Positions 31,212 to 36,380 of a stretch of DNA of 64,000 nucleotides are shown piece after piece. Both the position numbers and the translations under genes were made by a program. The stretch's first letter is position 1, and every line of letters begins with the position of its first letter. A model generated the notes under the pieces. The model made no database searches and was not told the origin of the DNA. It worked only from the letters and a program-made list of their open reading frames with translations. Source of the DNA: an uncultured Draconibacterium sp. (lineage in GTDB: Bacteria; Bacteroidota; Bacteroidia; Bacteroidales; Prolixibacteraceae); the NCBI GenBank assembly GCA_963677155.1, contig OY781884.1:2060134-2124133 (forward strand), read 5' to 3'.

Positions 31212-31400
31212 AGCTGAAAGTTACAAAATTCTGAATTTAACCACTTAATGTTTAGTTAAAAGTTACTTGTTGCTGATTAATAATTCGTTAACCCACTGAT
31301 AATTTTTGGATAATCAGTGTTGTATAAAACATCCATAACTTGCAGGTGTATAAAAAATATTTCCCTATCTCTCTTGTATTCCTCTCAGGAAATCATCTCC

Positions 31401-31435
31401 AAAGGTTGTCACGTTCGAGACAACCTTTCTTTTTT
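31401..31435 (+). terminator. Terminator of an ORF-less short transcript (candidate sRNA or attenuator)
   Basis: AAAGGTTGTC-ACGTTCGA-GACAACCTTT plus T-run, with no + strand ORF just upstream. Confidence 0.65.
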
Positions 31436-31613
31436 GTAAATAGGTATTTTTCGCAAAGCCTGCGTCTTAACTAAAGATAAGTGGCTGAATTATCTACAAC
31501 TTTTTGAAGATTAAAATCAAGTTGAATATTTATAATCCTTCAAAAGTCAGGATTTTAGCCGTATAAATTATTATTTTTACCTGCATTGTAAATCAATAAA
31601 CCTAAAATAACCA

Positions 31614-33149
31614 ATGTCCAAATTTCAACTTTTTGGTAACTACCTTCGAAAAAAATTGTTACTGATCATTTTTATCGGATTTATAATTGGTATCGCTGTT
31701 ACCATTTCTTCTCTTAAAGTCATTGAAGCTACCTCTACAAACGAATCGTGCGAAGTATGTCACGTTCATCCCCATGTTTTTGATTCTTGGAAACTCTCTG
31801 TTCATCACGAGAACAGAACAGGAATGCATATTGGCTGTGTAGAATGTCACCTTCCGCCAAAAGGACAAGGCTACCTAAAAGAGAAAATAAAGGCCGGAGC
31901 CCGCGATGCTTACGGTTATCTGTTTAAAGACAGTGCCGATTTTAACTGGGAAGCCAAATCTTCGCTTGAGCAGGCACAGCATTTTGTTTTTGAAGAATCG
32001 TGTATAAGTTGTCACAATAATTTATTTCCGCTAACACTTAATTCCGAAGGTCAACAAGCTCACCTTTATTACTCGCAAAACCAAGAGGAACTGCGCTGCA
32101 TCAACTGCCACCTGAATGTTGGGCACTACGATCCGAATGCGCTTCATGCCAAAAATGTTGAGTTTGGAAGCACAGGTGCCGAAGCAAAAGAATATTATAC
32201 TTCTGCAACCGAAGTAAAGGTTCATGAAGACTATACCGAAACAGTTCCGGGTACAACCATTGCATTTAATATGAAAGCCATTCCGGGCGGAAGTTTCAAA
32301 ATTGGGAGTCCGGAATCGGAACAATTGCGCGAAAGCGATGAAGGTCCGCAAAAAACAGTAAATGTAAGTCCATTCTTTATGGCCGAAATAGAAGTGAGCT
32401 GGGATGAATACCTGGCCTTTTATGGTGCCACTGCCGCCGAAGGCCGAACCACCGACACTGAAGGATCTCGTACAGAAGCAGATGTTGATGCGATATCAGG
32501 GCCTACACCACCTTACGGGCAGCCCGACCAAAACTGGGGAATGGGAAGCCGCCCGGCCATTACGATGAGTTACCATTCAGCCGAAACCTACTGCAAATGG
32601 TTATCGAAAGTTACCGGAAAAACCTACCGCTTGCCAACTGAAGCCGAGTGGGAATATGCAGCCCGCGGAGGAACCGAAACTCCATTCTTCTTTGAAGGAC
32701 AGCCAAAAGATTTTAAAGACAAAAACTTTATTGGAAAACTATTCGGAAAAGGAAGCGACATTATTAATAACTACGTTGTTTACGAAAAAAACAGCGGACT
32801 GAAAACGGCCAAACCCGATGTTATTGAGGGCAATCCGTATGGTCTGAAAAACATGCTTGGCAATGCCGCAGAATACTGTGCTGATTGGTACTCCGAAGAT
32901 GCCTATTCGAAACTAAGCGATGGTGTTAGCGACCCCAAAGGACCAGCCTCGGGTGAGGAACACGTTATTCGTGGCGGAACATTTAAAAGTTCGGTTGGCG
33001 AAGTAAGAAGTGCTGCCCGCGATTACACCCGTAGCGAAGAATGGATGAAAACCGATCCGCAAATGCCAAAGAGTATCTGGTGGCTATCAGACTGTAATTA
33101 CATTGGCTTCCGAGTGGTGTGCGAATATGATGAGAATACCGGAAAATAA
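31614..33149 (+). CDS. NapC/NirT-type tetraheme cytochrome c fused to an FGE-sulfatase (SUMF1/GldK-like) domain
   Basis: TM helix; CEVCH, CVECH, CISCH, CINCH; then RLPTEAEWEYAARGG, NPYGLKNMLGNAAE, IGFRVV. Confidence 0.9.
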   Translation: MSKFQLFGNYLRKKLLLIIFIGFIIGIAVTISSLKVIEATSTNESCEVCHVHPHVFDSWKLSVHHENRTGMHIGCVECHLPPKGQGYLKEKIKAGARDAYGYLFKDSADFNWEAKSSLEQAQHFVFEESCISCHNNLFPLTLNSEGQQAHLYYSQNQEELRCINCHLNVGHYDPNALHAKNVEFGSTGAEAKEYYTSATEVKVHEDYTETVPGTTIAFNMKAIPGGSFKIGSPESEQLRESDEGPQKTVNVSPFFMAEIEVSWDEYLAFYGATAAEGRTTDTEGSRTEADVDAISGPTPPYGQPDQNWGMGSRPAITMSYHSAETYCKWLSKVTGKTYRLPTEAEWEYAARGGTETPFFFEGQPKDFKDKNFIGKLFGKGSDIINNYVVYEKNSGLKTAKPDVIEGNPYGLKNMLGNAAEYCADWYSEDAYSKLSDGVSDPKGPASGEEHVIRGGTFKSSVGEVRSAARDYTRSEEWMKTDPQMPKSIWWLSDCNYIGFRVVCEYDENTGK

Positions 33150-33192
33150 CTTATAACAATTGAATCCTAAATTCAACTAAAACATTAATAAC

Positions 33193-34548
33193 ATGAGTAA
33201 CAACAATTTTTCAAGAAGGAAATTTTTAGCCGGAGCCGCAACAGTTGGAGCAGCAGGGGCTATGGGAATCGGAACTTTGTCATCGTGCTCTGGCGGAAGC
33301 TCTTCTGCAAGCGCCGAATACGATTGGATGCCAAGAGAATACAAATATCCGCCTTTATTGGATGAAGTACCTGCAGGAACAGTTTTAAAAGCCGGAGTTA
33401 TTGGTTGTGGCGGACGGGGAACCGGTGCAGCTCTTAATTTTTTGGAAGCCGGTGGTTCAACCGTTCAGGTAACGGCGCTGGCCGATGTTTTTAAGGACAG
33501 GCTGGATAGTTGTGTGGAAAAAATTAAAACCGAAACCGGACAGGAAGTTCCTCCTGAAAACTGTTTTCTTGGGTTTGATGCTTATGAAAAAGTACTCGAT
33601 TCGGGTGTTGATATTGTAATTCTGGCAACACCACCCAAATTCCGTCCTCAGCAGTTTGAAGCGGCTGTAAAAGCACGTAAGCACGTATTTATGGAAAAAC
33701 CTGTTGCTGTTGATCCGGTTGGAATTCGCCAGGTTTTGGCTGCAGCCAAAATGGCCGATGCTGCCGGATTAAAAGTGGTTACGGGTACACAACGCCGCCA
33801 CCAACATAAATATTTAAACATATATAAAGAACTCAGCAATAATGCCATTGGCAAACTCACCACTGCCGAAGTATATTGGAATGGAGGACAATTGTGGTAC
33901 AGAAACAGCAAGCCCGAATGGAGCGAAATGGAATGGATGATTCGCGACTGGGTGAACTGGTGCTGGCTATCGGGCGATCATATTGTTGAACAGCACGTGC
34001 ACAATATCGACGTAGCCAACTGGTTTTTTGGCAAACATCCGATAAAAGCTTTAGGTTTTGGTTCACGTCAGCGTCGCCCAACCGGCGATCAGTATGATAA
34101 TTTTGCCGTTCGATATGAACTAGACGACGGACGCCAGATTTTAAGTACCTGCCGCCAGATTAATGGTTGTACAAATGCGGTAAACGAAGTAATGCATGGT
34201 ACTAAAGGAAAAGCATTTACCTCGCAGGGAGGAACAGCAATAATTACCGACTTGCAGGGAAATACTCTATTCTCGGACGAAGACCATGCAACCAGCCCAT
34301 ACGTTCAGGAACATAAGGACCTGATCACCTGTATTCGCGAGAATATACCATGGAACCAGGCCGAAGAAACTGCCAATTCGGTAATGGTGGCAATTATGGG
34401 ACGTGTTTCGGCATACACCGGAAAAGAAGTTACCTGGGACGAAATGATGAACTCGGACATGAAACTTGGTCCTGACACTTTCATTATGGGCGATATTGGC
34501 TACATGGAAACGGCCAGCGTACCTGTACCGGGAACACTTGAACGTTAG
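33193..34548 (+). CDS. Gfo/Idh/MocA oxidoreductase, Tat-exported lipoprotein
   Basis: SRRKFL...LSSC signal; VIGCGGRG; FMEKPVAVD; EQHVHNID. Confidence 0.93.
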   Translation: MSNNNFSRRKFLAGAATVGAAGAMGIGTLSSCSGGSSSASAEYDWMPREYKYPPLLDEVPAGTVLKAGVIGCGGRGTGAALNFLEAGGSTVQVTALADVFKDRLDSCVEKIKTETGQEVPPENCFLGFDAYEKVLDSGVDIVILATPPKFRPQQFEAAVKARKHVFMEKPVAVDPVGIRQVLAAAKMADAAGLKVVTGTQRRHQHKYLNIYKELSNNAIGKLTTAEVYWNGGQLWYRNSKPEWSEMEWMIRDWVNWCWLSGDHIVEQHVHNIDVANWFFGKHPIKALGFGSRQRRPTGDQYDNFAVRYELDDGRQILSTCRQINGCTNAVNEVMHGTKGKAFTSQGGTAIITDLQGNTLFSDEDHATSPYVQEHKDLITCIRENIPWNQAEETANSVMVAIMGRVSAYTGKEVTWDEMMNSDMKLGPDTFIMGDIGYMETASVPVPGTLER

Positions 34549-34677: not shown

Positions 34678-35292
34678 ATGAAAACAATTGAAAACAAACA
34701 AACATTTACCGTCAAAAAAATTTCTGCGTTTTTATTAATAGTTGTAGCTGGTATTTTCGCCTCGTGCGAAGGACCGGTTGGACCTCCGGGAATCCCGGGA
34801 GAAGATGGTTACAATTTTGAAGGAACCACTTTTGAATTTATCGGTGATTTTACTCCCGCAAACAGTTACCAAATGGCTCTTAACTTTGAAAATGAAGGAT
34901 TCATTCCTTATTATTCAGACGTAATCCTTGCCTATGTTTTGTGGACTAACGAAGACGGTTTTGAATTCTGGCGTCCACTTCCTCAAACCCAGTATTTTGA
35001 TTCTGGTGCAATTTTGCAGTATAATTTCGATTATACCACAGATTATGCAAACGATAAAATTGTTGACATATCAGTATTTTTAGATGGCGATGTGGATCTG
35101 TCAAGTTTGTCAAACAATTATACCTTGAACCAAACTTTCAGAATTGTAGTAGTTCCGTCTAATTTTATGAGTATGGCAAATGTAGATGCCAACGATATGA
35201 ACTCAATTTTAAATTCCTCTAATATTCAGTTTAAATCGTTAGGTACGATTGACCCGGGAATGGTTATTGATACCAATATTGAGATCAAATAA
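34678..35292 (+). CDS. Lipoprotein with a short collagen-like linker
   Basis: FASC lipobox followed by GPVGPPGIPGEDG. Confidence 0.8.
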   Translation: MKTIENKQTFTVKKISAFLLIVVAGIFASCEGPVGPPGIPGEDGYNFEGTTFEFIGDFTPANSYQMALNFENEGFIPYYSDVILAYVLWTNEDGFEFWRPLPQTQYFDSGAILQYNFDYTTDYANDKIVDISVFLDGDVDLSSLSNNYTLNQTFRIVVVPSNFMSMANVDANDMNSILNSSNIQFKSLGTIDPGMVIDTNIEIK

Positions 35293-35308
35293 TTAAAAAT
35301 TACGATAT

Positions 35309-35348
35309 AAAAAAGACCGATAACCAGTTTGGGTTATCGGTCTTTTTT
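35309..35348. terminator. Bidirectional terminator
   Basis: AAAAAAGACCGATAACC...GGTTATCGGTCTTTTTT between convergent genes. Confidence 0.85.
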
Positions 35349-35373
35349 ATATCGTAAAATTATCGATAGAGAA

Positions 35374-36066
35374 TTAGCCTTTGTTTTTAATTTCCTCAAG
35401 CCGTTCTTCGTTCAAAATAGTAAGTACATTTTTCTTTAAATCAATAATCTCCAGATCTTGAAATTCTTTTAAAATCCTTGAAATACTTTCGCGCGAAGTA
35501 CCTATAAGAGCAGCAATTTCGGTTTGTGTAAGGTTTAATGCAAAGGGATTTTGGCCATAAACTTCATGTGCTAAATAACTTATGGTATTGGCCAGGCGCC
35601 CGGGTAATTGATGCTGCACATTCTTCACCAACCGATCAAAATAATTCATTTCATCTTTAAAAACCGTAGACAAAACTTTAACAGCAAAGTCGCCATTACT
35701 TTTTAGTAAATCAGTAAAATGGTTTCGATCAATAAAACAAACCTCCGATTTGGTAAGTGCAACAGCCGAATAATAATTCGATTTTGTTTCCTTGTCGAGA
35801 TTCTGAAGACCGAGATAAGCCCCTTTTGTAGAAACACTTAAAATAAAATCTTTTCCTCCGGCACCCTTTTTTACCAATTTTACGAATCCTTCGCGTAAAT
35901 AGATAATATGTTGTACCGGTCCTCCTTCTTTAATAATAAGTTCTCCTTTATCGTACTGAATCATTGAACAACCTTTTCCGAGCGTAGTTAACTCATTATC
36001 ATCCAGAACTGAAACGGGCTTTGACTTTAGTGTACAATTAACACAGCTATTGGTCGACAAATTCAT
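35374..36066 (-). CDS. Crp/Fnr family regulator with N-terminal Cys cluster
   Basis: SCVNC...GC N-terminus, cNMP-binding domain, HTH LTQTEIAALIGTSRESISR. Start moved to the MNLSTN ATG at 36066. Confidence 0.9.
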   Translation of the reverse strand: MNLSTNSCVNCTLKSKPVSVLDDNELTTLGKGCSMIQYDKGELIIKEGGPVQHIIYLREGFVKLVKKGAGGKDFILSVSTKGAYLGLQNLDKETKSNYYSAVALTKSEVCFIDRNHFTDLLKSNGDFAVKVLSTVFKDEMNYFDRLVKNVQHQLPGRLANTISYLAHEVYGQNPFALNLTQTEIAALIGTSRESISRILKEFQDLEIIDLKKNVLTILNEERLEEIKNKG

Positions 36067-36173
36067 AAGATAGACTTTGATGTAATAAATATCACAAGTA
36101 TACGAGATTTTTCCCACAAAGTTAAATGAACCAATGATCTTTATTTGCCGTATAATTGTAAAAAGACTATACC

Positions 36174-36380
36174 ATGAATAAAATAGTAACATTAATCAGC
36201 TACAATTTAGGACTTTGGGGAATTTTAGGGTTCTTTGCTACCATAATTCTTGGCTTTATTTCGTGTTATGCGAATTTACCCAGTCAGGTATTCTATATCA
36301 GTCTGATTTCGTTTGCAGCAATAGGATTAGCTGCCACAACATTTTGTGTTGCGCGCGGATGTAAAAAATACGATAAATAA
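36174..36380 (+). CDS. Small two-TM membrane protein, 68 aa
   Basis: Two hydrophobic helices and a C-terminal CVARGC; divergent from the Crp/Fnr gene. Confidence 0.55.
   Translation: MNKIVTLISYNLGLWGILGFFATIILGFISCYANLPSQVFYISLISFAAIGLAATTFCVARGCKKYDK

Follow-up and report, generated by a model that had tools for sequence, protein, structure and literature searches.

The 64-kb window analysed here, a stretch of 64,000 nucleotides from the complete 5.27-Mb genome of an uncultured Draconibacterium sp., carries a two-gene unit in which a tetrahaem cytochrome fused to a domain of the formylglycine-generating enzyme (FGE) fold is followed, after an intergenic gap of 43 nt (33150-33192), by a Gfo/Idh/MocA dehydrogenase (hereafter Gfo) that bears a twin-arginine translocation (Tat) lipoprotein signal. 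The unit is delimited by the following features.

31614-33149, forward strand: tetrahaem cytochrome/FGE-like fusion gene, an open reading frame (ORF) of 511 amino acids
33193-34548, forward strand: gene for the Gfo/Idh/MocA Tat-lipoprotein dehydrogenase, an ORF of 451 amino acids
34591-34622, forward strand: intrinsic terminator, a hairpin with a U-run that ends the two-gene unit, from RNA folding

The terminator was missed by a simple consensus scan and confirmed by folding against shuffled sequences (-15.4 kcal/mol, z -5.4), with equally good folds in 0 of 200 shuffles. Each element that the original prediction, made from the letters of this DNA, had described was found to be present, from the transmembrane helix, the four CxxCH motifs and the FGE fold of the fusion to the spacing, the Tat-type Gfo and the terminator. 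We put at roughly 60% the probability that the two products form a periplasmic, respiration-linked dehydrogenase complex, in which electrons from Gfo would pass via flavin mononucleotide (FMN) and four haems to menaquinone.

Conservation of the two genes as a pair

The linkage between fusion and dehydrogenase, which the original prediction expected to recur in other genomes, does so without exception in the family of the host. The closest relatives of the fusion belong to Draconibacterium and other Prolixibacteraceae, and a Gfo ortholog lies 29-220 nt downstream in 75 of the 75 Prolixibacteraceae loci with enough downstream DNA, five further loci ending too early to show it. About 110 kb away in the same genome, a paralogous fusion (51% identity) is directly followed by a second Gfo (52% identity); since these two genes are adjacent and the genome holds just two Gfo genes of this subfamily, each beside a cytochrome-FGE fusion, the pair was duplicated as a pair. 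Downstream of the paralogous pair itself (G000:C1:2202464-2205306, reverse strand; locus L111, 6450-9325), on the same strand, lie genes for a GT2 glycosyltransferase and a PMT/TPR (ArnT-like) protein.

Presence tables of both subfamilies, compared over the same 401 Bacteroidota genomes, place the FGE-like subfamily in 46 genomes and the Gfo subfamily in 46 of those 46 versus 9 of the 355 others, counts that overstate independence because the genomes are kin to each other, while the pattern is found across many families. Of the 46 genomes, 42 have the two genes side by side and two do not, and in the remaining two the genes lie on different contigs. The fused form occurs in only 3 genomes of this sample, and fused forms were found too in Labilibaculum and in one Acidobacteriota metagenome-assembled genome. 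The unfused form is a haem-free protein of 314-353 residues that carries a signal peptide or a lipoprotein signal and shares 35-46% identity with residues 200-505 of the window protein; a Gfo ortholog still follows its gene. Pedobacter has unfused homologs, and Pedobacter sp. GW460-11-11-14-LB5 carries an ortholog, P0402. By this distribution, the FGE-like/Gfo pair is the core of the system, and the NapC/NirT-type haem module is an optional outlet gained by Prolixibacteraceae and a small number of further lineages.

In the nine genomes with Gfo alone (G013, G040, G053, G128, G143, G220, G327, G331 and G400), the proteins are close homologs at 42-51% identity and may use another partner. A YceI-like gene stands beside an unfused FGE-like gene in three loci (L112, 6898-7497; L117; L119). 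Proteins of the YceI kind are periplasmic binders of polyisoprenoids or quinones, and YceI may provide another way into the quinone pool.

Linkage to apbE and probable flavinylation

Neighbouring genes were clustered in 29 loci, 28 of them from the phylum sample and one being the window. In 12 of the 29, drawn from at least seven families, the cluster includes the flavin transferase gene apbE (PF02424), most often arranged as FGE-like, Gfo, ApbE and xylose-isomerase-like TIM barrel. A genome holds one to three apbE genes among several thousand, and this linkage is therefore far above chance. In addition, P0266, a metagenomic protein of 730 residues, has ApbE and an FGE-like domain of this subfamily in one chain, and on its contig it is followed by an ortholog of Gfo (36% identity over 373 residues, E 3e-73). 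Evidence of the same type, a fusion of ApbE with its substrate domain, led Meheust et al. to DUF2271 as a proposed substrate, later confirmed by co-expression (PMC8238504).

The FGE-like domain of the window protein contains a candidate attachment site.

32487-32507, forward strand: motif DAISGPT (residues 292-298) resembling the ApbE flavinylation motif, with Thr298 as the proposed FMN site, from conservation

The published ApbE motif reads D-x-x-[S/T]-G-A-[S/T] with FMN on the last residue, and mutagenesis indicates that Gly or Ala changes lower flavinylation while loss of the Thr abolishes it (PMC12052999). The clade of the window protein reads D[AG][IL][ST]GPT in 120 of 120 members, Pro replacing the canonical Ala, whereas about 112 of 120 members of the paralog clade have the canonical G-A-T and a few have G-P-T; the paralog in the window genome reads DGVSGAT. 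Asp292, Gly296 and Thr298 are invariant across the alignment of the fused clades (68 sequences), the unfused proteins read mostly DA[IV]TRP[ST], and 30 of 30 sequences from a diverse set keep the terminal Ser/Thr. The Gfo proteins and the operon-linked TIM-barrel proteins lack any such conserved motif.

Taken together, gene linkage, fusion and motif tip the balance, if only somewhat, towards a redox-active FGE-like domain to which ApbE would attach FMN covalently at Thr298. That the FGE fold constitutes a new class of ApbE substrate, its loop-tethered FMN serving as a second 'substrate' of a dehydrogenase that is exported by Tat with bound nicotinamide adenine dinucleotide (phosphate), NAD(P), and turning hydride into single electrons, is in our judgement an even chance. 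Neither an FGE-fold ApbE substrate nor an FGE-like/Gfo pairing is described in the flavinylation papers searched by term or in the wider literature searched, where one further search returned only background papers on BT2158.

Three loci of one genus (L115, L118 and L124) carry a longer cluster, in which a Gluconate_2-dh3 small subunit, a TIM barrel, a second Gfo (387 amino acids) and another TIM barrel precede an FGE-like gene (motif ELIARPS), a Gfo gene (453 amino acids) and ApbE.

The FGE-like domain

32229-33128, forward strand: FGE-fold domain without the catalytic Cys pair, about residues 206-505, from Pfam, PDB matches, AlphaFold2 (AF2) and Foldseek
33033-33089, forward strand: second family-specific segment, residues 474-492, W..TDPQ.PKS.WW, from invariant columns in two alignments

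The fold is assigned by several searches. The domain scores 133.7 bits against the FGE-sulfatase family PF03781 (cut-off 23.3; residues 221-474), and solved FGEs match it with E 2e-23 in a sequence search of the PDB. An AF2 model of the domain alone has a confident core and a predicted template modelling score of 0.81, and its best Foldseek matches are the FGE 6XTP and PvdO 5HHA, with an FGE-fold probability of 1.00 and a TM-score of 0.72 to PvdO. The FGE alignments stop at RGG(T/S)F, just ahead of the copper-binding Cys pair, where the window protein is Cys-free; likewise, Cys is absent from the 14 residues after RGG in 225 of 240 relatives. From these residues, the domain is predicted to be unable to make formylglycine. 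Equivalog cut-offs in NCBIfam are missed, with 100 vs 500 bits for PvdO, 98 vs 350 for GldK and 52 vs 360 for EgtB, the best NCBIfam match being PvdO, named dihydropyoverdine dehydrogenase (E 9e-29, below cut-off).

Residues 276-316, which contain the DAISGPT motif, and residues 474-492 are the two most conserved family-specific segments and also the only parts of the domain that AF2 fails to place, with a predicted local distance difference test (pLDDT) score below 50 in both models. Judged from these models, the two loops would fit elements that stay disordered until a cofactor or partner is bound. For the whole protein, the AF2 model is of poor quality (mean pLDDT 64.9) and was built without haems, which makes its haem domain and interdomain geometry unusable.

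Relatives of the fusion number more than 7,800 clusters at 90% identity, with both domains in all those listed, and their annotation goes no further than "SUMF1/EgtB/PvdO family nonheme iron enzyme" or "formylglycine-generating enzyme". A search of representatives returned mostly giant proteins with multiple FGE repeats and only a few full-length fused representatives. In three metagenomic proteins of about 720 amino acids (P0216, P0249 and P0253), an FGE-like domain of this subfamily is fused behind some 410 N-terminal residues that have no annotation beyond a faint FG-GAP hint.

The haem module

31650-31718, forward strand: N-terminal transmembrane anchor, about residues 13-35, from the translation, with an AF2 helix at residues 3-39
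31749-32111, forward strand: four CxxCH motifs, residues 46-50, 75-79, 130-134 and 162-166, from motif search
31884-31907, forward strand: putative quinone/quinol site, Lys91 to Asp98, from alignment to NrfH (2J7A chain C)

The fusion is the only CxxCH-bearing ORF in the window. Its haem module matches NapC/NirT (PF03264) with 94.4 bits against a cut-off of 24.1, over residues 13-175, and positive residues precede the transmembrane helix, so that the rest of the protein is predicted to be periplasmic. Four CxxCH motifs are found in 239 of 240 relatives, and the Cys and His of these motifs are invariant in the 68 aligned sequences from both fused clades. The Met of the NrfH CxxCHxM motif is replaced by His52 in the fusion, and the invariant His residues 52, 64, 150 and 171 would be sufficient for bis-His ligation.

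In the alignment to 2J7A chain C, Lys91 corresponds to NrfH Lys82 and Asp98 to NrfH Asp89, and both are invariant in the 68 sequences. NrfH Lys82 is in turn equivalent to Lys91 of CymA, and mutating that residue disrupts both respiration and the interaction with quinol (PMC2762525). As with the FGE-like domain, the NCBIfam equivalog cut-offs are missed (NrfH 74.7 vs 134, NapC 46 vs 349, TorC 72 vs 478 bits), which points to a NapC/NirT family member orthologous to no characterised one. The host genome encodes a CcsBA-type cytochrome c maturation/assembly gene. A separate multihaem cluster of this genome (G000:C1:4522000-4534000, L140) contains a 500-amino-acid protein that matches NapC/NirT in part; alongside it are other multihaem cytochromes, a protein of the cytochrome b561 type and a cytochrome c assembly protein in which ResB and CcsA are fused.

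The dehydrogenase, its substrate and the direction of electron flow

The Gfo sequence opens with a 32-residue signal (residues 1-32) that contains the twin-arginine motif SRRKFL and the lipobox LSSC with Cys32, followed by GCGGRG at position 71 and EKP at position 168. Pfam GFO_IDH_MocA (PF01408) matches with 52.6 bits against a cut-off of 24, and the Tat signal model TIGR01409 with 18.8 against 16.7, while the NCBIfam cut-offs of the BT_2158 family (21 vs 750 bits) and of IolG (75 vs 355 bits) are missed. The closest relatives of known structure, with E values from 1e-12 to 1e-7, are inositol dehydrogenases, aldose-aldose oxidoreductase and DgpA.

For the substrate, the genes linked to relatives of the pair are informative. 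A TIM barrel of the xylose-isomerase-like, sugar isomerase/epimerase-like kind occurs in 17 of the 29 loci, and a DUF1080 3-keto-disaccharide hydrolase in two of them. In Bacteroides, BT2156-BT2159 form a periplasmic 3-keto-glycoside route in which, for BT2158, a second sugar was proposed as the acceptor for the bound cofactor (PMC8121099). Since a TIM barrel, DUF1080 and a Gfo-type dehydrogenase are components of that route, the context of the relatives points to this chemistry. The host genome has no homolog of the operon-linked TIM barrel at E 1e-10. The periplasmic conduit for sugar or glycoside oxidation that was originally proposed is partly supported, by the quinol-site Lys, which is kept, and by the 3-keto-glycoside genes of relatives; the window pair itself has no sugar genes beside it.

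The periplasm has no free NAD pool. Redox potentials are about -320 mV for bound NAD(P)+ and about -74 mV for menaquinol, and because of these established values electron transfer from sugar through NAD(P)H, flavin and haems to menaquinone would be downhill, whereas the reverse would be strongly uphill.

Surroundings of the pair

By Pfam and NCBIfam matches, the neighbours in the window are ComF, a YD-repeat protein, rhodaneses, a Crp-type regulator, a metallo-β-lactamase (MBL) hydrolase and GH97. The pair is a bare two-gene unit amid a housekeeping neighbourhood. The same matches include no nitrate or nitrite reductase gene near the pair, in agreement with what had been claimed. ComF is divergent and lies upstream of the pair; downstream, a collagen-like lipoprotein follows here and asnS-rpoN in sister genera.

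The downstream lipoprotein-like ORF (34678-35292, forward strand; 204 amino acids) has a short collagen-like GPxGPPGxPG stretch. It lies downstream of the pair in no more than 24 of the 52 related loci, matches nothing in Pfam or NCBIfam and was rejected as a part of the system. After it lies a strong bidirectional terminator with a 20-bp stem (35305-35352). The Crp/Fnr-type regulator gene (35374-36192), present in only 7 of the 52 loci, was likewise rejected as a dedicated regulator. On the 5' side, the 403-nt divergent intergenic region (31212-31613) contains a 10-bp GC-containing hairpin with a T-run (31401-31437, forward strand; -13.1 kcal/mol, z -4.2), about 180 nt 5' of the fusion gene start, which may belong to a leader or attenuator or mark where a small RNA ends; an Rfam search of this region gave chance-level matches only and no family.

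Discussion

The observations above can be joined into one mechanism. The Tat system would export Gfo with tightly bound NAD(P), and the enzyme, lipid-anchored in the periplasm, would oxidise a periplasmic sugar or glycoside. FMN on the flexible, conserved Thr298 loop of the FGE-like partner would then take the hydride from bound NAD(P)H and pass electrons one at a time to the four c-type haems in the NapC/NirT part of the fusion, and this module would reduce menaquinone at the site containing Lys91. In the unfused forms, the electrons would go to another acceptor.

Several observations weigh against this interpretation. Besides the kinship of the genomes compared, an FGE-like partner of the subfamily was not detected in 9 of the 55 genomes that carry the Gfo subfamily, and two genomes keep the order FGE-like, YceI, ApbE with the Gfo gene elsewhere. 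The motif departs from the canonical one at positions conserved in known substrates, with Ala changed to Pro in the window clade and Gly-Ala to Arg-Pro in most unfused relatives, and one lineage with apbE in the operon reads ELIARPS. Its D-A-[IV] start is also found at the homologous place in genuine FGEs and is thus ancestral. Furthermore, apbE stands beside neither pair in the host genome, whose three apbE genes all lie elsewhere, and the window pair is adjoined by no TIM barrel or other sugar gene.

An alternative, which we regard as unlikely, is that the FGE fold acts as a cofactor-less docking scaffold of the GldK/GldJ/PorK kind and that the haems reoxidise bound NAD(P)H directly. The missing FGE catalytic cysteines, the purely structural use of the fold by PorK and GldK and the lack of apbE in the window would all accord with such a role, and pair conservation is equally compatible with docking. 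This explanation, however, leaves the apbE genes in 12 of 29 operons, the ApbE::FGE-like fusion and the invariant Ser/Thr of the motif unaccounted for, and most members of the family are haem-free, leaving nothing to dock to. It is also opposed by the established chemistry by which NAD(P)H gives hydride and haems take single electrons, a step that normally needs a flavin-type converter. Of the original prediction, the association of the FGE-like domain with the dehydrogenase is supported as a conserved functional pairing, and the passive scaffold with direct reoxidation of NAD by the haems is probably incomplete, given the apbE linkage, the fusion with ApbE and the conserved flavinylation-like motif.

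Less likely still is a flow in the opposite direction, in which the NapC/NirT module would oxidise menaquinol and Gfo would be a periplasmic terminal reductase of a keto compound, served by the FGE-like domain. Characterised NapC/NirT proteins are indeed quinol dehydrogenases (PMC2762525), and ApbE-flavinylated modules often feed extracytosolic reductases (PMC8238504); the host lineage is facultatively anaerobic. Against this, transfer from menaquinol to bound NAD(P)+ is strongly uphill by established potentials, the cluster enzymes of relatives consume 3-keto-glycosides, that is, oxidation products, and the haem-less form is carried by aerobic genera. The least probable of the explanations weighed makes the FGE-like domain itself a catalyst, such as the small-molecule oxidase proposed for PvdO, or a modifier or chaperone of Gfo, with haems that serve this chemistry. 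PvdO is both the best NCBIfam match (E 9e-29) and among the closest folds (TM-score 0.72), and FGE-family proteins such as NirV are generally known as accessory factors of periplasmic redox enzymes, but the PvdO score falls far under its cut-off (100 vs 500 bits), the metal-binding Cys pair is missing, and the tight 1:1 co-duplication with one Gfo subfamily together with the apbE linkage better fits a stoichiometric redox partner.

Bacteroidota and other bacteria that degrade polysaccharides have an abundance of periplasmic Gfo/Idh/MocA dehydrogenases, which raise the question of how bound NAD(P) is recycled. If the flavin-and-haem relay from Gfo to menaquinone is correct, it would offer a general and widespread answer to the reoxidation of periplasmic NAD enzymes and their coupling to respiration, and the oxidation of sugars or glycosides in the periplasm would thereby conserve energy directly. 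A new fold would then join the ApbE-flavinylated proteins, and thousands of annotations as "formylglycine-generating enzyme" or "SUMF1/EgtB/PvdO family nonheme iron enzyme" would be corrected.

Comparison with known systems

By analogy, the system would combine an ApbE-type flavin relay with a NapC/NirT cytochrome that delivers electrons to the quinone pool. By defining features or cut-offs, the fusion itself is neither an FGE nor PvdO, GldK, NrfH, NapC or TorC. With NrfH, CymA and NapC it shares the single N-terminal transmembrane anchor, the four CxxCH motifs, a PF03264 score above cut-off and the Lys and Asp of the quinol site. It differs from them in having no NrfA, NapAB or TorA partner, in being joined to an FGE fold and paired with a dehydrogenase, and probably in the direction of electron flow, which would be into the quinone pool.

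The FGE-like domain resembles PvdO of P. aeruginosa (5HHA), PorK/GldK and SUMF2 in being a periplasmic FGE fold without the Cys pair, and is set apart from PvdO and PorK by its own loops (276-316 and 474-492) and by the constant tie to one Gfo subfamily. With the ApbE-flavinylated modules NqrC, RnfG, FMN_bind, DUF2271 and DUF3570 (PMC8238504), the likeness extends to apbE within the cluster, an ApbE::substrate fusion, a D-x-x-[ST]-G-A-[ST]-like motif with invariant terminal Ser/Thr, a periplasmic location and a link to membrane electron carriers. The differences are the FGE/C-type-lectin-like fold of the carrier, a motif that is often G-P-T or R-P-[ST], and an electron donor that would be an NAD(P)-bound Tat dehydrogenase.

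Finally, Gfo has in common with Zymomonas glucose-fructose oxidoreductase, Caulobacter aldose-aldose oxidoreductase (5A02) and the Bacteroides glycoside 3-dehydrogenase BT2158 the Tat signal, the Rossmann GxGxxG, the EKP motif and the periplasmic location, and for relatives of the window pair also the 3-keto-glycoside gene context. In those Tat-exported enzymes, the cofactor is thought to be reoxidised by a second sugar (PMC8121099); the Gfo subfamily of the window differs from them in having a dedicated protein partner.

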